A stretch of DNA of 30,307 nucleotides from a virus (taxonomy: Duplodnaviria; Heunggongvirae; Uroviricota; Caudoviricetes), in IMG/VR virus record IMGVR_UViG_638341084_000020, one strand, 5' to 3'. Numbering within the stretch: position 1 is the stretch's first letter; each line of letters opens with the position of its first letter. The notes beneath the pieces are model-generated. The model saw only the letters and a list, made by a program, of their open reading frames with translations, had not been told where the DNA came from and did not search any database. This document shows, piece after piece, positions 98-28,165 of this stretch. The translations under genes were made by a program, and so were the position numbers.

Positions 98-672
98 CTA
101 CGGTAGGGCTGGCCATTCAATATCCGGTGCAGTTGATGTATCAACACGGTTCAGCAACACCCGATACTTTTTCCAGGCTTCCAGCAACAAGGTTTCTTCC
201 TCCGTTGCGATCTCCAGATCCACAGCATCCTGAAGCGGCGCAATATGCTCACTGGCTACCTGCATCAGGCTGTTTTTTGTTTCTTCCGCCTCCCGGATCC
301 GGAACAGTTTTTCTGCTTCCGTATCCTTCACCCAGGCTGTGCCGTTCCACTTCTGATATCCCCTCCCGGCGATAACCAGGTAACATTTTCCGGTAACGGA
401 CCGAGTTCAGAAATAAATAACGCGTCGCCGGAAGCCACGTCATAAACCGTTTTACCCCGATGATCTTCAACGAGATGCCACGATGCCTCATCACTGTTGA
501 AAACAGCCACGAAGCCTGCCGGAATATCTGGCGGTGCAATATCGATACTGTTTGCTGGCAGACCTGTATGAGGCGGAATATATGCGTCACCTTCACCAAT
601 AAATTCATTAGTTCCTGCCAGCAGATTATAAATTTTTATGGTCCGTGGTTGTTCACTCATTCTGAATGCCAT
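98..672 (-). pseudogene. tfa: Tail fibre assembly protein Tfa, split by an apparent -1 frameshift (N-terminal part 328..672, C-terminal part 98..331)
   Basis: Two adjacent minus-strand ORFs in different frames (114 aa and 77 aa). Together they total about 191 aa, the usual Tfa length. The first matches the Tfa N-terminus ([24 protein letters not shown]...) up to ...LSPGG, the second matches the Tfa C-terminus (...[16 protein letters not shown]...). The reading frame changes around 355..365. Confidence 0.65.
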
Positions 673-3587
673 TATGCAAGCCTCACAATGTAGTTAAATG
701 CGATGTTTTTGACAGTGTTTTCCGCGTTACCAGCAGCGTTAACGGTGATGGTGTGTCCATGTGAGCCAATCGCAACAGAGTGCGTATGAGCACCAATACC
801 GACAGTATGTGCGTGAGCACCTGCAGATGCAGCTGTGCCGCTGACACTATGAGTGTGCGCTCCTGCAGCACTTGTATTCACACTGGCCGCAGACACTACC
901 TTATGTACTGACCCATTTTGTGACCACTGGCTGACTGCTGATGCGCCTGTGACACTATGAGTATGGTTTCCGGCACTTGCGGCTGTACCGCTCACACTGT
1001 GCGTATGCGCCCCGGTGTTATTCGTGGATTTAGTGCCGTAATCAAACGACGATGTGGTTTTCGTCCCCAAATCCGTACTGGATGCACTGGCGCTGTGGGT
1101 GTGCGATTTAATGCCGTCCTGTTCCTGAGACAATACGGCCCGACCACTGGCAGGTTTGCCCTTAATCGTCCAGCCACGCATATCAGGGATCACGCCTGAC
1201 GGATAAGCGGTTGCAAGTTTCGGGTAAGCGGATTTGTCAAAAGTCTGCCCCTGCATCAGGGCATAACCAGACGGAACGGTATCTGATGGCCACGGGATTG
1301 GTGCGCCAGGCGGATAAAACTGCTCTGATGGTGTATAGAGTGAATAAACTGTACCGTCCGTTAACCCTTCCGGCTTATTAGCAGAATATGCTGGTGACGT
1401 ATGAATAGTCACGCTGGCATTACTGGTATAATCCCATTGAATATTTACACCAGTCGCATAATTTCCGATTGCAACGTAAATATCGTAAGTATCACCAGAT
1501 GTATTGACCCAGGCAAAATTTGTAAACCCTGTCGATGTGCGCTGCCATAAAGCACCAGTAATCCCCTTCGGATTACCATTACCTGCACGCAAAACAAGTT
1601 CAGATATACCTGCCTGTTGAGGTGACCCCACGTTAAATCCCGCGCCACCAATCAACGTAATTGAAACAACAGAACTCGCCTGTGGCATGGTTACCGTTGC
1701 TAATTTGAACCAACCAGCACCACCGCTGAATGACATTGTTGTTGAGTTAAGCGTACCAATATCTTTCGGCGTCAGTGTTATATCCGCTGAAAGCGCCTTA
1801 CCATTCACCTTACGGGCAGAAGGTACCCGACCATTCGCATTATCATTAGCTGCTTTCACTGCTTTCGGTGTCGCGGCAAGCGTTTCAGATGCGCTGTTGG
1901 TTGCACTACTGAGCTGGACAATTCCTTTTTGTGCTGTCGTAGCGTCCTGAGCAGTATATTTCCCGTTAGCAAGGTCATAGGCTGCCTTTACCGACTTTGG
2001 CGTTGCCGCCAGCATTTCAGATGTGCTGTTGGTCGCGCTGCTGAGCTGAACTATCCCTTTCTGTGCTGTCGTTGCATCCTGTGCGGTGTATTTCCCGTTA
2101 GCCAGCTCATACGCGGCCTTAACGGCTTTTGGCGTTGCCGCCAGTGACTCGGAAGTGCTGTTAGTCGCACTGCTGAGCTGTACTATCCCCTTTTTCGTCG
2201 TGCTCGCATCCTCAAGCGCCACGGCGGATGCAATATCCTCTGCCCGTTTTGCCGCTGTCTCGGCGCGCGTTGCCGCGGATTCCGCCGTACTTTTGCTCTG
2301 AGCTGCCGCCGTCGCACTGCCAGCTGCCTCTGTCGCCTTCGTGGATGCCGTCGTGGCGCTGCCCTTTGCTGCTGACGCCTGTCTGGTCGCCTCATCTTTT
2401 GAAGCAGACGCAGATGATGCCGATGACGCCGCCGAACTGGCGGACGATGCGGCAGCCGTTTTTGAGGATTCTGCGCTGGTTTCCGACGCTTTCGCGTTCG
2501 TCTCGGATGTCTTCGCTGCGGAAGCAGACCTCGCTGCTGCGCTGGCCTGTTCAGTGGCTTCGCCAGCCTTCGTTGTGGCTGTTGAAGCGGACGATGCGGC
2601 GCTTTCTGCCGATTTTCCGGCAGCGGTGGCACTGGCTGAGGCCTGCCCGGCACTTGTTGACGCGGCACTGGCAGACGACGCAGCCGCTGTTTTTGAGCCT
2701 GCCGCAGCTGAGGCGCTCTGTCCCGCTGCCGTCTCAGAAGACCTGGCGTTCGTCTCGGACGTTTTTGCCGCCTTCGCGGAATTTGCTGCCGCCGTTGCCG
2801 AGGAAGCTGCGCTACTGGCGCTCGAGGATGCGTTCGTTTCTGATGATTTTGCCGCCTCTTTTGAAGCCGACGCATCCCGGGCTGAGGTGGCAGCTTCTGA
2901 CGCTTTCGTGGTCGCGGTGGATGCAGAAGTGGCGGCTGATTGTTGTGACGCTGCAGCATTCGTTTCTGACGTTTTCGCGGCAGCGGCACTGGTAGCTGCC
3001 GCGCTTTTTGAGGACTCTGCAGCGGCAGCACTTTTTTCCGCTTCAGTGGCCTTTGTTGATGCCGTTCCTGCGCTGGAAGACGCTGACTGAGCCGACGAAG
3101 CGGCCTGTCCGGCTGACGTGCTGGCTGCACGTGCTGAATCTGCAGCATCAGTCGCATGGGTTGCCGCCTCACGGGCAGATGTGCCGGCATCACTGGCTGA
3201 CTTCTTCGCGGCTGCCGTGTTCTGTGCCACCACGGACGCGTTACGCGCCACCTCTTCCACCATCTGTTCAAAACGGCGCAGTGCCTCCGGACGGGCATCA
3301 TCCTCCGTCATGGCACCGAGAAAATCATTCAGCGTACCGGGTTGAGAATCTTCATACACGGTGATGGTCCCGGCATGTGACGGCGGGAATCCTTCCACCA
3401 ACAGAATAACGCTGTACTGCCCGTACTCAACGTCCATGCTGTAACGCCCGGCTTCATCCGGATTTTCTGAGGCCAGCGTGTTCACCACCACCGTGGTGCT
3501 GTTACGTTTTGCTTTCAGCTGGATTGTGCAGTTCTGTACCGGTTTTCCTGTGCCGTCTTTCAGTACACCTGAAATCTTTACTGCCAT
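672..3587 (-). CDS. stf: Side tail fibre protein Stf (972 aa from the ATG at 3587; track ORF begins 2 codons earlier at a GTG)
   Basis: N-terminus [26 protein letters not shown] and C-terminus ...[29 protein letters not shown] match lambda Stf as I recall it. Internal Ala/Ser-rich region, 44-aa tandem repeats and a His-rich GAHTHS repeat region near the C-terminus. GGGG-type ribosome-binding site precedes the ATG. Confidence 0.85.
1848..2192 (-). repeat. About 2.6 tandem copies of a 132-bp in-frame coding repeat inside stf (44-aa unit [44 protein letters not shown])
   Basis: Repeat copies begin at Stf track residues 468, 512 and 556 (period 44 aa = 132 bp); the third copy diverges after about 27 residues. 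Visible at DNA level as a near-identical 132-nt periodicity. Confidence 0.85.
2244..3221 (-). repeat. Low-complexity Ala/Ser/Thr-rich coding region of stf with reiterated short motifs ([19 protein letters not shown] and similar)
   Basis: Stf residues about 125-450 consist almost entirely of A, S, T, K, E, Q, G. The GC-rich DNA produces long spurious ORFs on both strands here. Confidence 0.7.
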
Positions 3588-10098: not shown

Positions 10099-12656
10099 CG
10101 TCCACCTCCGGAGAACAGGCCACCATCACGCATCTGTGTCTGAATTTCATCACGGGCACCCTTGCGGGCCATGTCATACACCGCCTTCAGAGCAGCCGGA
10201 CCTATCTGCCCGTTCGTGCCGTCGTTGTTAATCACCACATGGTTATTCTGCTCAAACGTCCCGGACGCCTGCGACCGGCTGTCTGCCATGCTGCCCGGTG
10301 TACCGACATAACCGCCGGTGGCATAGCCGCGCATCAGCCGGTAAAGATTCCCCACGCCAATCCGGCTGGTTGCCTCCTTCGTGAAGACAAACTCACCACG
10401 GTGAACAATCCCCGCTGGCTCATATTTGCCGCCGGTTCCCGTAAATCCTCCGGTTGCAAAATGGAATTTCGCCGCAGCGGCCTGAATGGCTGTACCGCCT
10501 GACGCGGATGCGCCGCCACCAACAGCCCCGCCAATGGCGCTGCCGATACTCCCGACAATCCCCACCATTGCCTGCTTAAGCAGAATTTCTGTCATCATGG
10601 ACAGCACGGAACGGGTGAAGCTGCGCCAGTTCTGCTCACTGCCGGTCAGCATCGCCGCCATATTCTGTGCAATACCATCAAAGGTCTGCGTGGCAGCACT
10701 TTTAACCTGCGACATACTGTCCGTGGCGCTCTCTTCCCACTCACTCCAGCCGGACTTCAGGCCTGCCATCCAGCTCCCGCGAAGCTGGTCTTCAGCCGCC
10801 CAGGTCTTTTTCTGCTCTGACATGACGTTATTCAGCGCCAGCGGATTATCGCCATACTGTTCCTTCAGGCGCTGTTCCGTGGCTTCCCGTTCTGCCTGCC
10901 GGTCAGTCAGCCCCCGGCTTTTCGCATCAATGGCGGCCCGTTTTGCCCGTTGCTGCTGTGCGAATTTATCCGCCTGCTGCGCCAGCGCGTTCAGGCGCTC
11001 CTGATACGTAACCTTGTCGCCAAGTGCAGCCAGCTGGCGTTTGTACTCCAGCGTCTCATCTTTATGCGCCAGCAGGGATTTCTCCTGTGCAGACAGCTGG
11101 CGACGTTGCGCCGCCTCCTCCAGTACCGCGAACTGACTCTCCGCCTTCCACAAATCCCGGCGCTGCTGGCTGATTTTCTCATTTGCTCCGGCATGCTTCT
11201 CCAGCGTCCGGAGTTCAGCCTGAAGCGTCAGCAGGGCAGCATGAGCACTGTCTTCCTGACGATCGCCCGCAGACACCTTCACGCCGGACTGTTTCGGCTT
11301 TTTCAGCGTCGCTTCATAATCCTTTTTCGCCGCCGCCATCAGCGTGTTGTAATCCGCCTGCAGGATTTTCCCGTCTTTCAGTGCCTTGTTCAGTTCTTCC
11401 TGACGGGCGGTATATTTCTCCAGCGGCGTCTGCAGCCGTTCGTAAGCCTTCTGCGCCTCTTCGGTATATTTCAGCCGTGACGCTTCGGTATCGCTCTGCT
11501 GCTGCGCATTTTTGTCCTGTTGAGTCTGCTGCTCAGCCTTCTTTCGGGCGGCTTCAAGCGCAAGACGGGCCTTTTCACGATCATCCCAGTAACGCGCCCG
11601 CGCTTCATCGTTAACAAAATAATCATCCTTGCGCAGATTCCAGATGTCGTCTGCTTTCTTAAACGCAGCCTCTGCCTTAATCAGCATCTCCTGCGCGGTA
11701 TCAGGACGACCGATATCCAGCACCGCATCCCACATGGATTTGAATGCCCGCGCAGTCCTGTCTGCCCAGGTCTCCAGCGTGCCCATGTTCTCTTTCAGGC
11801 GGCGGATCTGGTCATCAAACCCTTTCGTTGCGGCCTCGTTCGCCGCCTGCAATGCCCCGGCTTCATCGCCGGAACGCTGCAACTGAGCAACATACGCAAT
11901 CTGCTCCGTCGTCACGTTATGGAACTGGCGTGCCATCGCCGTCAGCCCCGACGTCGGGTCTGTGGTCAGCTTCCCGAAGGCTTCAGCGACCTTGTCCACC
12001 TCCACGCCGGATGCAGAGGAGAAACGCGCCACACTCTGGCTGATGGACGCAATCTGAGCCTCACCGCTTACCCCCGCCTTAACCAGTGCGCTGAGTGACT
12101 CGCTGGTCTGGTTAAACGTCAGCCCTGCCGCCTGCCCGGCTCTGGACAGGACCAGCATACGATCTGCCGTCAGTCCCGCCTGATTGCCGGAAAGGACCAG
12201 CGTTTTGTTGAAATCGGACAGGGTTGAGTTGCCCTGATACCAGGCATACGCCAGCGCACCGGTCGCCACCGCCAGCGAGGTGGCCCCCACCATCGGCAGG
12301 GTGATCGCACCGGCAAGCCCCCTGAACATGGGGATCATCCCGCCGAAGGAGTCCTTCACCTGCCCCCCCTGTTGCAGCAGGATCAGCCACGGACTTTGCC
12401 CGCCTGCAAGCTGCGTGGCCACGTCGGTGAACTGTGCAGGCAGCATACGCATGGCGGCTTTATACTGCCCGACGGAAATCCCCGCTTTCTGTGCAGCCAG
12501 CGCCTGTCGGCTCAGCGACTGTTCAACGACTGCCGCTGTTTTTTTCGCATCACTTTCCGTACCGGAAAAATGACGCCTGACTCTGGCCATCTGCTCGTCA
12601 AATCTGGCCGCATCCAGACTCAAATCAACGACCAGATCGCCTACCGGTTCAGCCAT
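10095..12656 (-). CDS. H: Tail tape measure protein H, 853 aa
   Basis: Same length as lambda H; MAEPVGDLVVDLSLDAARFDEQMARVRRHF... and Gly-rich C-terminal region match lambda H. Confidence 0.95.
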   Translation of the reverse strand: MAEPVGDLVVDLSLDAARFDEQMARVRRHFSGTESDAKKTAAVVEQSLSRQALAAQKAGISVGQYKAAMRMLPAQFTDVATQLAGGQSPWLILLQQGGQVKDSFGGMIPMFRGLAGAITLPMVGATSLAVATGALAYAWYQGNSTLSDFNKTLVLSGNQAGLTADRMLVLSRAGQAAGLTFNQTSESLSALVKAGVSGEAQIASISQSVARFSSASGVEVDKVAEAFGKLTTDPTSGLTAMARQFHNVTTEQIAYVAQLQRSGDEAGALQAANEAATKGFDDQIRRLKENMGTLETWADRTARAFKSMWDAVLDIGRPDTAQEMLIKAEAAFKKADDIWNLRKDDYFVNDEARARYWDDREKARLALEAARKKAEQQTQQDKNAQQQSDTEASRLKYTEEAQKAYERLQTPLEKYTARQEELNKALKDGKILQADYNTLMAAAKKDYEATLKKPKQSGVKVSAGDRQEDSAHAALLTLQAELRTLEKHAGANEKISQQRRDLWKAESQFAVLEEAAQRRQLSAQEKSLLAHKDETLEYKRQLAALGDKVTYQERLNALAQQADKFAQQQRAKRAAIDAKSRGLTDRQAEREATEQRLKEQYGDNPLALNNVMSEQKKTWAAEDQLRGSWMAGLKSGWSEWEESATDSMSQVKSAATQTFDGIAQNMAAMLTGSEQNWRSFTRSVLSMMTEILLKQAMVGIVGSIGSAIGGAVGGGASASGGTAIQAAAAKFHFATGGFTGTGGKYEPAGIVHRGEFVFTKEATSRIGVGNLYRLMRGYATGGYVGTPGSMADSRSQASGTFEQNNHVVINNDGTNGQIGPAALKAVYDMARKGARDEIQTQMRDGGLFSGGGR

Positions 12657-13487: not shown

Positions 13488-13502
13488 CGCTGACTCTCCG
13501 GA

Positions 13503-14243
13503 TTAACTGGCGGTGACGGTAATTTCTGCAACCGCAGCAAACTCACCATTACCGGATACAACCGGAATGTTGACCTTGCCTGCAGCAACGCCGTTCACGG
13601 TGATGGTCATACCACTGACCGACACGGTGGCTTTTGTTTTATCCGCAGACACCGCACGAAAGCTCTTGTCGGTTACGCCCTCCGGCTGGAAGGCCACGGT
13701 CAGCGTGGTGCTCTGCCCTTTCACCACCGAGGTGCTGGAAGGCGTCACGGTCATGCCGGTTGCCGCTGTTACCGTGCTGCGATCTTCTGCCATCGACGGA
13801 CGTCCCACATTGGTGACTTTCACCGTGCGGGTGATCACTTCCTTCGCCGTCACCGCCTTACCGATACTGCTGACCCAGCCACGGAACACATCGACCGTGC
13901 CGTTCGGGAAGCGGATTTTATAGGCACGGGTATCGCCTTCATTAAACCACGCCAGCAGCGCCTGCTGCCCCTGCTCTCCGGGCATCCACGCCAGCGTGAA
14001 GCTGGTATCTCCGGCAGATTTCTGCCCCTGCCCGGTCGCAGTCCAGTCTGCATCTTCATCATCGAGATAGCTGTCGTCATAGGACTCAGCGGTCAGTTCG
14101 CCGGGCGTCAGGTCTTTAACTTTTGCCAGACGCGACCAGTCAACGTCTGAAAGCGGATTCGCATAAGGGTCACCGCTCCCCTTATAAACCCACAGGGTGG
14201 TCCCGGCACCTTTCACCGGCATTGTAGGATTTGGTACAGGCAT
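13503..14243 (-). CDS. V: Major tail tube protein V, 246 aa (C-terminal Ig-like domain)
   Basis: [45 protein letters not shown]... matches lambda V. Track ORF extends 10 codons further upstream; start chosen by homology and spacing after U. Confidence 0.9.
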
Positions 14244-15232: not shown

Positions 15233-15586
15233 TCAGCGGCGACGGTTAACGGCAGGCGGTACGCCCCGTCCAAGCCAGAGATGACAACTTCCGCCATCAT
15301 CCGGCGAAACCCGATCTACCCAGAAATTTTCCTCACCGATGGTCAGCGTGTCTCCACGCCGCAGCTGCCGCACCTCATCAGTCCGGACAAACAGGGACGG
15401 GCTGGAGCCTTCAACGCGCACGCCCTGTCCGGCATAGCTGATATTTTCAGGGTCATCAAAAACACCACGTATCACCGCACCTGACTGCTCACCGGATGTA
15501 ATGGTGGCTGACGTTCCCATGTACCCGCGTATCGTTTCATCGGCGCGGGCAATGGCAGCATCGAACAGGTTATCGAAATCAGCCAC
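15233..15586 (-). CDS. FII: Head-tail joining protein FII, 117 aa
   Basis: MADFDNLFDAAIARADETIRGYMGTSATITSGEQSGAVIRGVFDDPENISYAGQG... matches lambda FII. Confidence 0.92.
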   Translation of the reverse strand: MADFDNLFDAAIARADETIRGYMGTSATITSGEQSGAVIRGVFDDPENISYAGQGVRVEGSSPSLFVRTDEVRQLRRGDTLTIGEENFWVDRVSPDDGGSCHLWLGRGVPPAVNRRR

Positions 15587-15597
15587 AGCGCCTCCCG

Positions 15598-15996
15598 TTA
15601 TTGCATTCTGGCCAGGCCGCGCTCTGTCATTTCGGCTGCCACACCGGCAGAGACACGAAACGCCGTTCCCGGCAGCACAAATGCCACAGGTTCATCCCGC
15701 GTGGCGTGAAGTGCATCAGTATGCAGCTTCACCAGTGCCACGACCGTGACCAGTTCAGACGTATCCAGAATCACGGTATCCGGCTGCGCTGATCCCACCT
15801 CATTTTCATGTCCGGTCAGCACATTTTCCCGGCTGAGAGGGGTGTCCTGACCGGCAGTTTCATCCGTGTCATCAAGCTCCTCTTCCAGCTCTGCCACACG
15901 GAGCGCCAGTTCTTCTTTCGTCCCCGTCAGGCTGACATCACGGTTCAGTTGTTCACCCAGCGAGCGGAGACGGGCAATCAGTTCATCTTTCGTCAT
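15598..15996 (-). CDS. FI: DNA packaging protein FI, 132 aa
   Basis: MTKDELIARLRSLGEQLNRDVSLTGTKEELALRVAELEEELDDTDETAGQ... matches lambda FI; start is the 14th codon of the track ORF. Confidence 0.88.
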   Translation of the reverse strand: MTKDELIARLRSLGEQLNRDVSLTGTKEELALRVAELEEELDDTDETAGQDTPLSRENVLTGHENEVGSAQPDTVILDTSELVTVVALVKLHTDALHATRDEPVAFVLPGTAFRVSAGVAAEMTERGLARMQ

Positions 15997-16037
15997 GGAC
16001 TCCTCCACAGAGAAACAATGGCCCCGAAGGGCCATGA

Positions 16038-17099
16038 TTACGCCAGTTGTACGGACACGAACTCATCAGGGTCAGCCAGCAGCATCAGCGGTGCTGACTG
16101 AATCATGGTGAACTCACGCGCCGGATCGCCGGTGGTCACCCAGTTTTTCGGGTAACGGGCAGAGGCGTTAATGCCTTCGCGCTGTGCGTCCGCATCCTGA
16201 ATGCAGCCATAGGTGCGCAGACCGCGTGCCTGAGTGTTCCCCAGCACCATCGTGTTGTCCGGCAGGAAGTTCTTTTTGACGCCGTTTTCCACGTACTGTC
16301 CGGAATACACGACGATGGCCACATCGCCATACATCCCCTTATAGGACACCGCTTTACCTAGGTCTTTCACCGCTGTCTCCAGCTCGGAATTAGAGCCACG
16401 ACGGGTATCCAGCTTCTCCTTGACGGCTTTGAAGGAACGGAACAGCGCCCAGCCTTTCGGATCGAACACGATGATATTCACCACACCGCTGGCGTTCAGC
16501 GCGTAGGCTTCGATATCGTCGGTCGGGTCATACGTGGACTTGTCACGCTTGCTCCACTCCGTGCCGCCGGACTGCGTGATGTTATTCTCCTCACTGCGGC
16601 CCATATCCACCTCAACCGGATCGAAGGCTTCACCGGTCATGGTGTATTTGCCCTTAAGCACGGCAGAAACTGCCTGCATCTCTTCGACCTGAGCAATGGC
16701 CAGCTCTTCGTCACGCATGTTCTGCATGATGATGCGACGGCGGCGGTAAGCCGGGTCCGCCAGATTCTGCGGATCTTCATCCGGCAGGCGACGCAGGGTC
16801 ATCTGCGGATCTTCATCCGGCAGGCGACGCAGGGTCATCTGCGGATTCACTTCATGCTTCGGCTTGACATATCCCGGCGTAAATTCAGAGGTGGAGCCGC
16901 CACGGGAACGGATAACCTCACCGGAAACAATCGGCGAAACGTACAGCGCCATGTTTACCAGTCCCGGAATTTGTGAGAGATAGACTTTCTCCGTGGTGAA
17001 GGGATAGCTCTCACGGAAAAAGAGACGCAGAAACAGCGGATCAAACTTAAATTTCTGCTCATTTGCCGCCAGCAGTTGGGCGGTTGTGTACATCGACAT
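16038..17099 (-). CDS. E: Major capsid protein E, 353 aa, carrying an in-frame 12-aa tandem duplication relative to lambda E (341 aa)
   Basis: MSMYTTAQLLAANEQKFKFDPLFLRLFFRESYPFTTEKVYLSQIPGLVNMALYVSPIVSGEV... matches lambda E throughout, except that MTLRRLPDEDPQ occurs twice in tandem. Confidence 0.92.
   Translation of the reverse strand: MSMYTTAQLLAANEQKFKFDPLFLRLFFRESYPFTTEKVYLSQIPGLVNMALYVSPIVSGEVIRSRGGSTSEFTPGYVKPKHEVNPQMTLRRLPDEDPQMTLRRLPDEDPQNLADPAYRRRRIIMQNMRDEELAIAQVEEMQAVSAVLKGKYTMTGEAFDPVEVDMGRSEENNITQSGGTEWSKRDKSTYDPTDDIEAYALNASGVVNIIVFDPKGWALFRSFKAVKEKLDTRRGSNSELETAVKDLGKAVSYKGMYGDVAIVVYSGQYVENGVKKNFLPDNTMVLGNTQARGLRTYGCIQDADAQREGINASARYPKNWVTTGDPAREFTMIQSAPLMLLADPDEFVSVQLA
16767..16838 (-). 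repeat. Perfect 36-bp direct tandem duplication inside E (encodes MTLRRLPDEDPQ twice)
   Basis: Two identical adjacent 36-nt units (plus-strand unit ctgcggatcttcatccggcaggcgacgcagggtcat) corresponding to E track residues 97-108 and 109-120. Confidence 0.9.
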
Positions 17100-17154
17100 A
17101 AAAAAATCCCGTAAAAAAAGCCGCACAGGCGGCCTTTAGTGATGAAGGGTAAAG

Positions 17155-17487
17155 TTAAACGATGCTGATTGCCGTTCCGGCAAACGCGGTCCGTTTTTTC
17201 GTCTCGTCGCTGGCAGCCTCCGGCCAGAGCACATCCTCATAACGGAACGTGCCGGACTTGTAGAACGTCAGCGTGGTGCTGGTCTGGTCAGCAGCAACCG
17301 CAAGAATGCCAACGGCAGCACCGTCGGTGGTGCCATCCCACGCAACCAGCTTACGGCTGGAGGTGTCCAGCATCAGCGGGGTCATTGCAGGCGCTTTCGC
17401 ACTCAATCCGCCGGGCGCGGTTGCGGTATGAGCCGGGTCACTGTTGCCCTGCGGCTGGTAATGGGTAAAGGTTTCTTTGCTCGTCAT
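17155..17487 (-). CDS. D: Capsid decoration protein D, 110 aa
   Basis: [52 protein letters not shown]... matches lambda D; track ORF begins 2 codons upstream. Confidence 0.92.
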
Positions 17488-17496
17488 AAACATCCC

Positions 17497-18102
17497 TTAC
17501 ACTGGTGTGTTCAGCAAATCGTTAACGGCATCAGATGCCGGGTTACCTGCAGCCAGCGGTGCCGGTGCCCCCTGCATCAGACGATCCAGCGCAGTGTCAC
17601 TGCGCGCCTGTGCACTCTGTGGTGCTGCGGCCAGAATGCGGCGGGCCGTTTTCACGGTCATACCGGGGGTTTCTGCCAGCACGCGTGCCTGTTCTTCGCG
17701 TCCGTGAGCCTCCTCACAGTTGAGGATCCCCATAATGCGGCTGTTTTCTGCCGCAACCGCTGCGGTGATCTGCGCGTTCACGTCCGGCTGCGCCGCGCTG
17801 GCGTTCTCGCCCTCCGTCGCTGGCACCACGTCAGTAACGTCAGCCTGCGAAGCAGTGGCTGAAACAGTTGTTGATTGAGTCTCTTTGGTCATTCGCCCTC
17901 CTGAGAGACGGGATTTACGTGCATCCAGTGCATCACGCATGACGGTGATCGCATCGGTGCTGTTAACAAGTTCATCAGCCAGTCCGGCATCAATGGCCTC
18001 CTGACCGCTGTACACTGCAGCCTCGGTATCCAGCACAGCCTGCACGGACAGGCCGGTATATGCCGACACCTTCTGCGCAAACATCCGGCGGGTTGCGTCC
18101 AT
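17497..18102 (-). CDS. Nu3: Capsid scaffolding protein Nu3, 201 aa, nested in-frame in the 3' part of C
   Basis: Internal in-frame start at MDATRRMFAQKVSAYTGLSVQ...; the lambda Nu3 arrangement shares frame and stop with C. Confidence 0.6.
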   Translation of the reverse strand: MDATRRMFAQKVSAYTGLSVQAVLDTEAAVYSGQEAIDAGLADELVNSTDAITVMRDALDARKSRLSGGRMTKETQSTTVSATASQADVTDVVPATEGENASAAQPDVNAQITAAVAAENSRIMGILNCEEAHGREEQARVLAETPGMTVKTARRILAAAPQSAQARSDTALDRLMQGAPAPLAAGNPASDAVNDLLNTPV

Positions 18103-18796
18103 CCGGGACTGCAGTGTCTCCCGGACGTCATCCGGAAGATGGCTGTAGGGGTTGCCATCCACCTTATGGCTGCCGCTGTAAATCAGCGTGATTTCCACAC
18201 CCTGTTTCTCCAGCGCAGCACCGTAATTACTGTGAGCCATCATGACGCCGATGGAGCCTGTCCGGGCGGTCTGCGTGACCAGACGCCGGGAGGCGGCACT
18301 GGCAAGCAACTGACCTGCACTGCAGTTCATGTCGTTGGCAAGCGCCCATACCGGTTTTATGTCACGCACACGGGCGATGATGTCAGCGCAGTCAAATGCC
18401 CCCGCCACCATCCCGCCGGGCGTGTCCATATCGAGCAGAATGCCGTCCACCATCGGATCGCTGGCAGCCTGTTGCAGACGGGCGATAATGCCGTTGTAAC
18501 CGGTCATCCCCGAGTACGGCTGCAGCGCCCGCGTCCGGCTGACCAGCGTGCCGGACACCGGCAGCACGGCGATGCCGTTCATGACCTGATAACTGCGGGC
18601 CTGTCGTGGTCCGTCATCATCACCGGATAATGCCAGCGTCGCGAGTGCCTCCTGGGCAGTCAGGCTGTCGCCGGACACCGCATCCGTCAGGCGGCTGATC
18701 CCAAGCTGGCCTGCAAGCGCACAAAAGAAAACCCGCGCATAGGCGGGTTCAAGCATCAGCGGCTCATTAAAGGCCATGCTGGCAATATGCGGGAGA

Positions 18797-18816
<20 letters not shown>
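17497..18816 (-). CDS. C: Capsid assembly protease C, 439 aa, GTG start
   Basis: (M)TAELRNLPHIASMAFNEPLMLEPAYARVFFCALAGQ... matches lambda C; GTG start preceded by a strong AGGAGG ribosome-binding site and overlapping the last 20 nt of B, as in lambda. Track ORF extends further upstream inside B and is probably not the real start. Confidence 0.85.
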
Positions 18817-22497
<3,681 letters not shown>

Positions 22498-23431: not shown

Positions 23432-23626
23432 ATGTCAACGAAGAACAGAACCCGCAGAACAACAACCCGCAACATCCGCTTTCCTAACCAAATGATTGAA
23501 CAAATTAACATCGCTCTTGATCAAAAAGGGTCCGGGAATTTCTCAGCCTGGGTCATTGAAGCCTGCCGTCGGAGGCTAACGTCAGAAAAGAGAGCATATA
23601 CATCAATTAAAAGTGATGAAGAATGA
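23432..23626 (+). CDS. ylcI: Small ribbon-helix-helix-like protein, 64 aa (YlcI-like, DUF3950)
   Basis: MSTKNRTRRTTTRNIRFPNQMIEQINIALDQKGSGNFSAWVIEACRRRL...; basic N-terminus, then a beta-strand / helix / G-x-N turn / helix pattern typical of CopG/Arc/MetJ folds; I recall the 64-aa DLP12 YlcI as similar. Confidence 0.6.
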   Translation: MSTKNRTRRTTTRNIRFPNQMIEQINIALDQKGSGNFSAWVIEACRRRLTSEKRAYTSIKSDEE

Positions 23627-23790
23627 ACATCCCGCGTTCTTCCCTCCGAACAGGACGATATTGTAAATTCACTTAATTACGAGGGCATTGCAGTAATTGA
23701 GTTGCAGTTTTACCACTTTCCTGACAGTGACAGACTGCGTGTTGGCTCTGTCACAGGTTAAGTAGTTTGAATGATTAGCAGTTATGGTGA

Positions 23791-23997
23791 TCAGTCAACC
23801 ACCAGGGAATAATCCTTCATATTATTATCGTGCTTCACCAACGCTGCCTCAATTGCCCTGAATGCTTCCAGAGACACCTTATGTTCTATACATGCAATTA
23901 CAACATCAGGGTAACTCATAGAAATGGTGCTATTAAGCATATTTTTTACACGAATCAGATCCACGGAGGGATCATCAGCAGATTGTTCTTTATTCAT
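23791..23997 (-). CDS. ybcW: Small hypothetical protein, 68 aa (YbcW-like)
   Basis: ATG start with GGAG ribosome-binding site; [41 protein letters not shown]...; same size and position as the 68-aa ORF near the lambda right end and DLP12 ybcW, as recalled. Confidence 0.55.
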
Positions 23998-24282
23998 TTT
24001 GTCGCTCCATGCGCTTGCTCTTCATCTAGCGGTTAAAATATTACTTCAAATCTTTCTGTATGAAGATTTGAGCACGTTGGCCTTACATACATCTGTCGGT
24101 TGTATTTCCCTCCAGAATGCCAGCAGGACCGCACTTTGTTACACAACCAATACTATTAATTGAAAACATTCCTAATATTTGACATAAATCATCAACAAAA
24201 CACAAAGAGGTCAGACCAGATTGAAACGATAAAAACGATAATGCAAACTACGCGCCCTCGTATCACATGGAAGGTTTTACCA

Positions 24283-24693
24283 ATGGCTCAGGTTGCCATT
24301 TTTAAAGAAATATTCGATCAAGTGCGAAAAGATTTAAACTGTGAATTGTTTTATTCTGAACTAAAACGTCACAATGTCTCACATTATATTTACTATCTAG
24401 CCACAGATAATATTCACATTGTGTTAAAAAACGATAACGCTGTGTTAATAAAAGGACTTAAAAAGGTTGTAAATGTTAAATTCTCAAGAAATACGCATCT
24501 TATAGAAACGTCCTTTGATAGGTTGAAATCAAGAGAAATCACATTTCAGCAATACAGGGAAAATCTTGCTAAAGCAGGAGTTTTCCGATGGGTTACAAAT
24601 ATCCACGAACATAAAAGATATTACTATACCTTTGATAATTCATTACTATTTACTGAGAGCATTCAGAACACTACACAAATCTTTCCACGCTAA
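24283..24693 (+). CDS. ybcV: Hypothetical protein, 136 aa (YbcV-like, DUF1398)
   Basis: ATG at 24283 ([30 protein letters not shown]...) preceded by GGAAGG about 8 nt upstream. The track ORF (24160) starts at an upstream TTG; 24241 is another possible ATG. Function unknown. Confidence 0.55.
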
Positions 24694-24983
24694 ATCATAA
24701 CGTCCGGTTTCTTCCGTGTCAGCACCGGGGCGTTGGCATAATGCAATACGTGTACGCGCTAAACCCTGTGTGCATCGTTTTTAATTATTCCCGGACACTC
24801 CCGCAGAGAAGTTCCCCGTCAGGGCTGTGGACATAGTTAATCCGGGAATACAATGACGATTCATCGCACCTGACATACATTAATAAATATTAACAATATG
24901 AAATTTCAACTCATTGTTTAGGGTTTGTTTAATTTTCTACACATACGATTCTGCGAACTTCAAAAAGCATCGGGAATAACACC

Positions 24984-25277
24984 ATGAAAAAAATGCTACT
25001 CGCTACTGCGCTGGCCCTGCTTATTACAGGATGTGCTCAACAGACGTTTACTGTTCAAAACAAACAGACAGCAGTAGCACCAAAGGAAACCATCACCCAT
25101 CATTTCTTCGTTTCTGGAATTGGGCAGAAGAAAACTGTCGATGCAGCCAAAATTTGTGGCGGCGCAGAAAATGTTGTTAAAACAGAAACCCAGCAAACAT
25201 TCGTAAATGGATTGCTCGGTTTTATTACTTTAGGCATTTATACTCCGCTGGAAGCGCGTGTGTATTGCTCAAAATAA
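24984..25277 (+). CDS. bor: Bor lipoprotein (serum-resistance, Iss-like), 97 aa
   Basis: MKKMLLATALALLITGCAQQTFTVQNKQTAVAPKETITHHFFVSGIGQKKTVDAAKICGG..., near-identical to lambda Bor; lipobox LITGC; opposite strand to the late operon, as in lambda. Confidence 0.93.
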   Translation: MKKMLLATALALLITGCAQQTFTVQNKQTAVAPKETITHHFFVSGIGQKKTVDAAKICGGAENVVKTETQQTFVNGLLGFITLGIYTPLEARVYCSK

Positions 25278-25308
25278 TTGCATGAGTTGCCCATCGATAT
25301 GGTCAGCT

Positions 25309-25782
25309 CTATCTGCACTGCTCATTAATATACTTCTGGGTTCCTTCCAGTTGTTTTTGCATAGTGATCAGCCTCTCTCTGAGGGTGAAATAATCCCGTT
25401 CAGCGGTGTCTGCCAGTCGGGGGGAGGCTGCATTATCCACGCCGGAGGCCGTGGTGGCTTCACGCACTGACTGACAGACTGCTTTGATGTGCAACCGACG
25501 ACGACCAGCGGCAACATCATCACGCAGAGCATCATTTTCAGCTTTCGCATCAGCTAACTCCTTCGTGTATTTTGCATCGAGCGCAGCAACATCACGCTGA
25601 CGCATCTGCATGTCAGTAATTGCCGCGTTCGCTAGCTTCAGTTCTCTGGCATTTTTGTCGCGCTGGGCTTTGTAGGCGATTGCGTTATCACGGTAATGAT
25701 TGACCGCCCATGACAGGCTGACGATGATGCAGATAATCAGAGCGGATATAATCGCGGTTACTCTGCTCACTGTTGCCCCCAC
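25309..25782 (-). CDS. Rz: Spanin inner-membrane subunit Rz (i-spanin), 157 aa
   Basis: ...[59 protein letters not shown]... matches lambda Rz / DLP12 RzpD; N-terminal transmembrane segment plus coiled-coil region. Confidence 0.9.
25368..25550 (-). CDS. Rz1: Spanin outer-membrane lipoprotein subunit Rz1 (o-spanin), 60 aa, embedded in Rz in the +1 frame
   Basis: [60 protein letters not shown]; lipobox LVVVGC and proline-rich mature region, as in lambda Rz1. Confidence 0.88.
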
Positions 25783-26264
25783 AAACAGACTTCACGCTCA
25801 ATCTCACGACGAGTCATCAGGCCTTTCCATTGCTTACCGCCAGCGTATGTCCAGCGACGCAGCTGATCACATGCGCCTTTGATATCGCCCTGGTTTATTT
25901 TGCGAAGAAGCGTCGATGTTCTAAAATTGCCAGCACCCACATTGTAAACGAATGAGTAAAGAGCGCCGCGCGTTGTTTCCGGTATATCGACTTTGATATA
26001 CGGGTTAATTTGTCTGGCGACAGTGGCAAGGTCTTTATTCAAGAGTGCTTTGCATTCTGCTTTGGTATACGTTTTACCGAGCATGATGTCTTTTCCGGTG
26101 TGTCCGTGACATACAGTCCATACACCAACAATATCTTTGTATGGTATGTAGCTGACACCTTCCAGACCATCGTTACCACTTGGGCCAGTGATTAACACTG
26201 ATGCTATAGCAATTGCTCCGCCACCAATAGCAGCAGCAACGGCTTTTCGTAATGATGGAGGCAT
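25767..26264 (-). CDS. R: SAR endolysin R (phage-21-type T4-lysozyme-fold muramidase with N-terminal signal-anchor-release domain), 165 aa
   Basis: Gly/Ala-rich weakly hydrophobic N-terminal segment ([18 protein letters not shown]) followed by E35...D44...T50 spacing ([18 protein letters not shown]), the catalytic triad arrangement I recall for R21. Not the lambda transglycosylase R. Confidence 0.88.
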
Positions 26265-26479
26265 TATTCACCTCTCGCAGCCTTGCGCTTATCTTCTTTA
26301 ATCTTGAAATAAAGGTTTGTCAGGTACGTCAGCAGGCCAAATACCAGGCTACCCAGCACACCTATTGCTGCCCACTGTGAGGGAGTGACTTTATCGAGCA
26401 GCTGTAAAAACCAGTAACCGGCACTACCTGCTGAGGTGCCATAGGCGACTCCAGTTGTTAACTTATCCATGAATTTCAT
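26264..26479 (-). CDS. S: Pinholin / antiholin S (phage-21 S21 type), 71 aa with dual start (Met1 antiholin, Met4 holin)
   Basis: [71 protein letters not shown]; two transmembrane segments and a charged C-terminus; M-K-x-M dual-start motif. Track ORF extends 15 codons upstream. Confidence 0.85.
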
Positions 26480-27067
26480 AACCCCACCTCGCAGACAAAG
26501 CGGGTGTAAATTGAGGGAATACAACGTATCGCAAAAAAGCAGAAACGTAACTGACTCCGAGTCAGTGAATAACTCAGGTATTGAGTTATCAGCTAATATC
26601 GAGACTCAAAAAATGGAAAAACCAGCTCGACGGCGGGTTTAAGCTGTGTGACGAAGTAACCACTCTTAACAGCATAACCAATTTTTTACGTACGTAAACC
26701 ACTGAATGATATTTATGAGAATGCTACCGAGTGTTCAAAACATCACAACAAATACATAAGAAAACCTCAACAAATAACCAATAAATAATTTCCAGTGTTA
26801 TTTTTAGCCGGTTTAAATTAAACAGACGAATTATAGAACCACCATAAATAACAGCCATTAATATAAATTAGCTAATAGATTTATTTTTGTTCAAATAAGA
26901 GCCATAAATAGGTTTCGATAGAAAAAGTTCAGATAAAAATAGAGATCTACTTCACAAATTAAATGAGAAACTAAAACTTACATCTTGAAATAATCACATT
27001 GATTAGATGAATATTTATCGCGCAGTGACATCATTTTTTAATAATAGTTCAAAAAAAAGGGCTCACG

Positions 27068-28165
27068 ATGAAAAAATTAACAGTGGCAATTTCTGCTGTA
27101 GCTGCATCAGTACTGATGGCGATGTCTGCTCAGGCAGCTGAAATTTATAATAAAGACAGTAACAAGCTGGATCTGTACGGGAAAGTTAATGCCAAGCACT
27201 ACTTTTCCTCTAACGATGCAGATGATGGTGATACTACTTATGTTCGTCTGGGCTTCAAAGGCGAAACCCAAATCAACGATCAGCTGACTGGTTTCGGTCA
27301 GTGGGAATATGAATTCAAAGGCAACCGCGCTGAATCTCAAGGTTCCTCCAAAGACAAAACCCGTCTTGCATTTGCAGGCCTGAAATTCGGTGACTACGGC
27401 TCAATCGATTACGGCCGTAACTACGGTGTAGCATACGACATCGGTGCGTGGACTGACGTTCTGCCAGAATTCGGTGGCGATACCTGGACCCAAACAGATG
27501 TGTTCATGACTGGTCGCACCACTGGTGTTGCAACCTATCGTAACAACGACTTCTTTGGTCTGGTTGATGGTCTGAACTTTGCTGCTCAGTACCAAGGCAA
27601 AAACGATCGTAGCGATTTCGATAACTACACCGAAGGTAACGGTGATGGCTTCGGTTTCTCTGCTACCTATGAATACGAAGGATTCGGTATCGGTGCAACT
27701 TATGCGAAATCTGATCGTACCGACACTCAAGTTAATGCAGGGAAAGTTCTTCCTGAAGTATTTGCTTCCGGTAAAAATGCAGAAGTTTGGGCCGCAGGTC
27801 TGAAATATGACGCTAACAACATTTACCTGGCCACTACCTATTCTGAAACCCAGAATATGACTGTATTTGCTGATCACTTCGTTGCTAATAAAGCTCAAAA
27901 CTTCGAAGCTGTTGCACAATATCAGTTCGATTTCGGTCTGCGTCCGTCCGTTGCTTACCTGCAATCTAAAGGTAAGGATCTTGGAGTATGGGGCGATCAG
28001 GACTTAGTCAAATATGTTGATGTAGGTGCAACCTATTACTTCAACAAAAATATGTCTACTTTCGTTGATTACAAAATCAACCTGCTTGACAAAAATGACT
28101 TCACTAAAGCACTCGGTGTAAGCACTGATGACATCGTTGCTGTAGGTCTGGTTTACCAGTTCTAA
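27068..28165 (+). CDS. nmpC: Prophage-encoded general porin (OmpC/OmpF/PhoE superfamily; NmpC/Lc type), 365 aa, intact
   Basis: Signal peptide [23 protein letters not shown], then [24 protein letters not shown]...; C-terminal ...VAVGLVYQF (terminal Phe) typical of 16-strand porins; AAGGG ribosome-binding site; sits between Q and S on the opposite strand, as nmpC does in DLP12 and lc in PA-2. Gene symbol is by analogy and not certain. Confidence 0.85.

Follow-up and report, generated by a model that had tools for sequence, protein, structure and literature searches.

The major capsid gene E of a lambda-like prophage in Escherichia coli B171 (EPEC O111) contains a perfect, in-frame tandem duplication of 36 bp, a very rare allele that departs from the usual form of the gene. 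The evidence taken as a whole is probably best explained by a genuine and young slippage duplication, which is likely to have recurred, which most likely impairs the capsid, and which would constitute a reversible step in the decay of the prophage. The analysed stretch of 30,307 nucleotides (the window) corresponds to the B171 contig AAJX02000012.1, from which it differs at only four positions, all of them N in the B171 record and A in the window. The features that are central to the argument are the following:

16038-17099, minus strand: gene E, major capsid protein, 353 codons plus stop, the lambda gpE orthologue bearing the duplication
17100-17126, minus strand: upstream in-frame extension to a GTG at 17126, yielding a 362-aa ORF
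16766-16801, gene on the minus strand: 36-bp unit, copy 1 on the plus strand (second in the coding direction), encoding MTLRRLPDEDPQ as residues 100-111 of the 353-aa protein (Tandem Repeats Finder and reading of the sequence)
16802-16837, minus strand: 36-bp unit, copy 2 on the plus strand (first in the coding direction), encoding MTLRRLPDEDPQ as residues 88-99
16838-16846, minus strand: partial third copy of 9 bp, TCTGCGGAT (coding strand ATCCGCAGA), from the 2.2 copies given by Tandem Repeats Finder
16796-16818: novel 23-mer created at the junction of the duplication, diagnostic, absent from single-copy alleles

Tandem Repeats Finder describes the region 16766-16846 as a single array with a period of 36, 2.2 copies (2.25 perfect), 100% matches, 0 indels and a score of 162. 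The two full units lie head to tail with 0 bases between them, as both the program and the reading of the sequence show, and each of them opens with the same 9-mer that forms the partial third copy (16766-16774 and 16802-16810). The duplicated unit can be placed in any register within 10 positions, and the interval 16765-16838 that an earlier note on this DNA had assigned to a perfect in-frame 36-bp duplication in E was thus essentially right. The junction 23-mer occurs once in the window and in none of 100 shuffled sequences.

The lambda-type start of E is the ATG at 17099 (MSMYTT...), and the stop codon occupies 16038-16040. Lambda E and all homologues that were compared begin at MSMYTT, and the GTG at 17126 is probably not the real start, although the B171 annotation of the E product (EDX30203.1) is the 362-aa start variant. 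The product of 353 aa contains MTLRRLPDEDPQ twice, whereas lambda E has 341 aa, and the proposal of the earlier note that the exact 36-bp repeat accounts for the whole excess is borne out by the removal of one unit, after which the gene matches E of CP066032 exactly and lambda E at all but 2 nucleotides. Apart from the insert, the protein has the same sequence as the common lambdoid E allele. The doubled segment had also been recognized correctly, but its numbering as residues 97-108 and 109-120 is offset by 9 from that of standard gpE (88-99 and 100-111), because it was counted from the upstream GTG and not from the ATG.

By sequence, fold and gene context, the protein is a lambda gpE and a member of the Phage_cap_E family. 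It aligns with the solved structure of lambda gpE 7vi9 with E=1.7e-224, residues 1-353 against 1-341, with one gap of 12 residues, and it matches PF03864 (Phage_cap_E) with 241 bits (cutoff 22.9) over profile positions 1-328 of 329. The gene sits between those for the decoration protein D and FI in the order C-D-E-FI, as in lambda, and Pfam identifies HDPD upstream and Packaging_FI downstream.

The duplicated allele is not confined to the B171 draft. Six contigs that belong to separate NCBI assemblies (among them GCA_005394625.1, GCA_015160495.1 and GCA_015160605.1) encode exactly this 353-aa protein, and with the 362-aa start variant of B171 the same duplicated allele is present in at least seven contigs from independent assemblies. 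Among the loci that were fetched, the junction was found in 4/4 carriers (L004-L007) and in 0/5 single-copy loci. Of these carriers, L005 matches the window without a single difference along 15.4 kb, and L006 departs from B171 and the window in two small patches. The earlier note had left room for an assembly artefact, which is excluded because the same allele recurs in so many independently assembled contigs. The window does stem from an older draft with ambiguous bases elsewhere, namely the four N's, and a sequencing or assembly error in a truly single-copy B171 genome could be imagined on that ground. However, the four N's lie in gene H, E is free of ambiguous bases, and the identical allele is found in at least six further contigs, which come from other assemblies and submitters and represent two backbones. 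In addition, assemblers tend to collapse perfect short tandem repeats and not to create them, so that such an error is extremely improbable.

The rarity of the allele was established with probes centred on the junction, since BLAST ranking is unfit for finding carriers: single-copy records score just as high, because their alignments are put together from two overlapping segments. A 40-nt probe centred on the junction, which is unable to seed on single-copy alleles, had 0 matches in 5,426 complete E. coli genomes, whereas a control 40-mer from nearby in E was found in 3,937 copies in 2,933 of the same genomes. The 40-nt probe likewise had 0 matches in 50,697 phage records, and the junction 23-mer was absent from the GTDB species representatives, IMG/VR and metagenome contigs. 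Thus, the doubled segment is not the usual form of lambda gpE and its homologues, a possibility that the earlier note had raised against its own proposal. In the literature searched, the allele has no earlier description, and the papers found on B171 prophages are silent on the locus; public databases already list the duplicated protein, with the unspecific name "major capsid protein".

The duplication also appears to be recent, as the earlier note had supposed, since its two copies do not differ at all and prophages that are otherwise nearly the same have only one. The opposite polarity, with the doubled form as the ancestor and the 341-aa form derived from it by deletion, could appeal to the fact that, in mechanistic terms, tandem repeats lose a copy by deletion more readily than they gain one by duplication. 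It is nevertheless hardly conceivable, because all members of the lambda family and the distant members of Phage_cap_E show the single-copy spacing, the two copies are 100% identical in DNA, and the carriers are nested within near-identical single-copy backgrounds.

The sequence of the single-copy gene suggests how the duplication could have arisen. The 9-bp partial third copy at the end of the array implies that the single-copy gene contains ATCCGCAGA at nt 254 and nt 290 of E, and this direct repeat, in frame and with a spacing of 36 bp, is indeed found there; the positions refer to the gene after one unit is taken out, a sequence that CP066032 carries as its actual single-copy allele. Both copies encode PQ dipeptides, which bracket the segment. 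Among direct repeats spaced by no more than 120 bp, this pair is the longest that E contains, and the duplication therefore fell at the best slippage substrate of the gene. Folded as single-stranded DNA, the interval forms two small hairpins with one of the 9-mers in each (z about -2.8; 2/200 shuffles fold as well), which might hint at pausing or misalignment. No non-coding element overlapping the repeat was found in Rfam.

In E. coli, duplications at microhomologies of 4-15 bp via template switching have been documented, including junctions that recurred independently (PMC1428787). The mutation described here bears every sequence hallmark of microhomology-mediated tandem duplication, and we infer slippage as its mechanism. 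During replication of the lambda-like prophage, the nascent strand would slip or switch template between the two ATCCGCAGA copies (encoding -PQ-), and the 36 bp between them would be copied again, head to tail and in frame. The product would be the capsid protein of 353 aa with residues 88-99 (MTLRRLPDEDPQ) doubled.

The duplication is found on two different backbones. Locus L004 (BGED01000109.1) has 518 differing positions against the window over about 21 kb and represents a distinct backbone; its E gene has three synonymous differences from that of the window, and yet it carries the identical duplication, again with both copies identical. Each backbone has its own single-copy siblings. Besides the duplication, L004 differs by 3 substitutions in 21 kb from AP042687 of the bovine strain OkiPb01714, and the window differs by 6 real substitutions in 30.3 kb from CP066032 (FDAARGOS_1059) and by 7 real substitutions in 30 kb from CP077479 (O111:H2 strain 12A), with E otherwise identical in both of the latter comparisons. 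Two independent events are the simplest account of two backbones that each have a single-copy twin, and these comparisons make it fairly likely that the duplication arose independently at least twice. The same event on two backbones would mark the site as a small mutational hotspot.

A single origin, followed by spread to the second backbone via a short patch of homologous recombination or gene conversion between co-resident lambdoid prophages, is a less probable alternative. E. coli genomes often hold several E-like genes, in up to 5 places per genome, the block of head genes is alike on both backbones (about 8 differences across window positions 15500-20000), the patchy differences of L006 are typical of such exchange, and a conversion patch of less than 405 bp that contained only the duplication would give the same pattern. 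Such a patch would, however, have to be confined to E nt 231-636, to carry no donor SNP and to make do with about 23-32 bp of homology on its left side. Furthermore, L004 is nearly identical to its own single-copy sibling, and the site is the one in E at which slippage is most to be expected, both of which argue for recurrence.

The position of the insertion in the capsid protein was derived from structure models. An AF2 model of a single-copy homologue has a TM of 0.83 to the gpE crystal structure 7sj5 and of 0.75-0.77 to lambda procapsid and capsid chains. In this model the E-loop has its last strand up to about residue 84, followed by an extended linker (residues 85-99) and, at residues 104-137, by the spine helix. 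The insertion is thereby placed in the linker of the HK97 fold that leads from the return strand of the E-loop into the spine helix. When the variant was modelled with AF2, the spine helix was retained at 116-149, as were, with lower confidence, the A-domain elements and the remainder of the fold. Residues 78-102 have a pLDDT below 50, a weak result, as low confidence at the insert is partly expected from an alignment without sequences covering it. The complete native motif remains beside both the E-loop strand and the spine helix in the 353-aa protein.

The linker is conserved in sequence and in length. Across 18 homologues, the most distant with 65% identity, the motif PxMxxRRLPDEDP is nearly invariant and has 0 indels. 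The spacing between E83 and M113 amounts to 30-32 residues in every one of 67 full-length family members with identities of 29-60%, and the central R-x-P/A-G/D-E motif is also kept. A comparable change of length at the linker was found in 0/18 close and 0/67 distant homologues. The window protein has 43 residues over the same span, outside the range typical of the family; by its sequence it is a member by descent, albeit an aberrant allele with regard to the fixed length of the linker.

The near-invariant sequence and the fixed length of the linker shift the evidence away from the view that the insertion is tolerated in a surface loop, and on the basis of conservation and modelling it is the somewhat likelier outcome that assembly, expansion or stabilization by gpD would be harmed. 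The strands of the E-loop belong to the gpD-binding beta-sheet (PMC5701804). A serious, though less likely, alternative is that the 12 residues simply loop out, that procapsid assembly, expansion and gpD binding persist, and that particles are still made, the variant being neutral or mildly altered in stability. The intact reading frame, the native motif on both sides of the insert, the retention of the spine helix and the rest of the fold in the variant model, and the integrity of all other morphogenesis genes in the window would fit a tolerated variant. The same applies to the occurrence of the allele in several non-identical strains on two backbones, as its persistence fits either a functional capsid or neutrality in the lysogen. 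On the other hand, no homologue, close or distant, varies comparably in length at this nearly invariant motif, and the site adjoins the E-loop, which joins the contacts with gpD and with neighbouring subunits (PMC5701804). Persistence in lysogens is, moreover, uninformative on the function of the virion.

A capsid lesion would be invisible to selection until induction, because the late genes of lambda are silent in the lysogen. Selection for the lesion at the level of the host is not expected either, since a capsid defect spares no host from lysis. Persistence in a few related strains is to be expected of a young allele that is neutral. A capsid-impairing lesion that is unselected in the prophage state would thus represent an early step of prophage decay. 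Perfect tandem repeats are known to be unstable, and reverse slippage between the 36-bp copies could restore the single-copy gene, so that a population of lysogens may hold single-copy revertants.

A very different role is conceivable, albeit very improbable: the 353-aa gpE might act as a dominant-negative "capsid poison" that co-assembles with the capsid protein of a related lambdoid phage and spoils its shells. The protein would be made when the related phage, infecting or induced, trans-activates the resident late operon. The host would then gain an abortive-assembly defence, and the presence of the allele on two backbones would reflect selection and not only a mutational hotspot.

The impairment of E, if real, would concern a prophage whose other head and tail genes are intact in the window. 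The window is distinct from laboratory lambda: it shares about 99% identity with lambda along the genes for head and tail, and J, stf, tfa and the region upstream of Rz are divergent. The annotation of the near-identical prophages of CP066032 and CP077479 identifies the element as a full-length lambdoid prophage at the argU/DLP12 site; it includes intD, quuD, essD, rrrD, rzpD, bor, ybcV, ybcW and nohD, and the prophages adjoin ompT and envY. The morphogenesis genes have the same order as in lambda (Nu1-A-W-B-C-D-E-FI-FII-Z-U-V-G-T-H-M-L-K-I-J). In the window, all 22 morphogenesis genes from Nu1 to J have open reading frames and, except for the duplication in E, none differs from CP066032 by more than one amino acid. 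The four A/T differences in H were rejected as real mutations or stops, since the B171 record has N at these positions and H is open in the window. The tfa gene is frameshifted in the window, and this frameshift is common to its relatives. The side tail fibres of lambda are dispensable. Among the essential morphogenesis genes in the window, E with its duplication is the only one that is changed.

The integrase, excision, repressor and replication functions fall outside the window, and the B171 contig stops about 3 kb past locus L007. In both CP066032 and strain 12A, int has as neighbours a KilA-N gene interrupted by an internal stop and an HTH gene that is truncated. The int gene is split by IS679 in CP066032 and intact in strain 12A; the split integrase was rejected as a sign that the lineage was already defective, because the split is a peculiarity of FDAARGOS_1059 and is not to be presumed in B171.

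Gene, fold and mutational mechanism are already familiar, and the finding leaves the current understanding unchanged. The allele bears on the question of whether the prophage at the DLP12 site of the EPEC prototype strain B171 still forms particles. With it, a lambda-like prophage that is otherwise complete may have taken its first disabling step towards decay, which reverse slippage could undo. The allele also provides a natural example of one microhomology-mediated duplication on two genetic backgrounds. For capsid biology, it is a ready-made test of whether the length-conserved linker between the E-loop and the spine helix of an HK97-fold protein accepts 12 extra residues. If the allele were fully functional, it would define a natural site in gpE that tolerates a 12-residue insertion and could be used for high-copy display on lambda, the head of which contains 415 copies of gpE (PMC10721106).

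Three known systems are suited for comparison. With lambda gpE (341 aa; PDB 7vi9, 7via, 7vii, 7vik, 8k39, 8xou, 8xqb and 7sj5) the window protein shares the HK97 fold, but it has a second MTLRRLPDEDPQ and thus 12 extra residues, predicted to lie between the return strand of the E-loop and the spine helix. The cryptic prophage DLP12 of K-12 has the same integration site and the same set of regulatory and lysis genes as the near-identical prophages of CP066032 and CP077479. DLP12 in K-12 has lost its head and tail genes, whereas the window prophage retains a complete lambda-like morphogenesis region, in which the only visible changes are the duplication in E and the frameshift in tfa. Finally, the duplication resembles the microhomology-mediated tandem duplications of E. 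coli in that it likewise lacks a spacer, is bounded by a 9-bp repeat (inside the range of 4-15 bp) and has a junction that apparently recurs, and, as for the template-switch duplications, the distance between the repeats is short enough for a single replication fork. In contrast to duplications of the type described in PMC1428787, it occurs in natural isolates instead of under laboratory selection.

In silico folding of single-copy E, the major capsid gene with one 36-bp unit, was carried out on the following interval as single-stranded DNA:

Window 16757-16847 minus one unit (single-copy E nt 247-301), both strands: hairpin-forming interval.

Two small hairpins were obtained on either strand, each of them containing one of the 9-bp direct repeats, with folding energies of -10.3 and -11.1 kcal/mol (z about -2.8).

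Three E-like proteins are far longer than 341 aa, namely P0016 (517 aa), P0017 (430 aa) and P0018 (423 aa). All three outscore a single copy of E, which implies that their internal repeats are larger. The record of P0016 bears the label Bacillus thuringiensis Sbt003, which suggests that it reflects lambda contamination or a misassembly.

It should be noted that the B171 annotation (EDX30203.1, 362 aa) places the start of E at an upstream GTG (window 17100-17126, minus strand), adding the residues MRLFLRDFF. This is probably a mis-called start codon, because E begins with MSMYTT in lambda and in all homologues. The earlier note counted from the upstream GTG, hence its residue numbering for E.

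The duplication-bearing locus L006 (JADDTC010000112.1) is identical to B171 apart from two clusters of 6 and 13 substitutions, in window 13500-14000 and 19000-19500. Such a pattern suggests either that short stretches were exchanged by recombination with another lambdoid prophage or that the assembly is chimeric. Within gene H (minus strand), the window has A at positions 10695, 10704, 10774 and 11217, where the B171 contig AAJX02000012.1 has N; at the same four positions the window seems to differ from CP066032 by A/T changes, one of which gives H an apparent N628S substitution. The H reading frame is open in the window, and the B171 record has no called H gene.

The tail-fibre region of the window contains the following features:

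98-672, minus strand: tfa (tail-fibre assembly gene), frameshifted, with four in-frame stops when the annotated span is translated.
132-330, minus strand: strong, full-length match to the IS009 family (Rfam RF02111; 224 bits), within tfa.
672-3587: side tail fibre gene, stf-like.
1879-2189: tandem repeat within the side tail fibre gene, 132-bp period, 2.4 copies, 82% identity.

CP066032 and CP077479, whose prophages are near-identical to this one, share the tfa frameshift. The 132-bp repeat presumably encodes a structural module that recurs in the fibre.

The accessory (moron) genes bor, lom, ybcV, ybcW, ylcI and a porin gene are carried on the prophage (window 23432-28165; loci L002, L008 and L009 of related prophages):

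27068-28165: porin gene, accessory (moron).

The integrase of the FDAARGOS_1059 prophage is interrupted by the IS66-family element IS679, and intD is intact in that of O111:H2 strain 12A; in both relatives a KilA-N gene carries an internal stop and a helix-turn-helix gene adjoining int is truncated. The prophage, at the tRNA-Arg (argU) site, corresponds to DLP12, the cryptic prophage of K-12, in full-length form.
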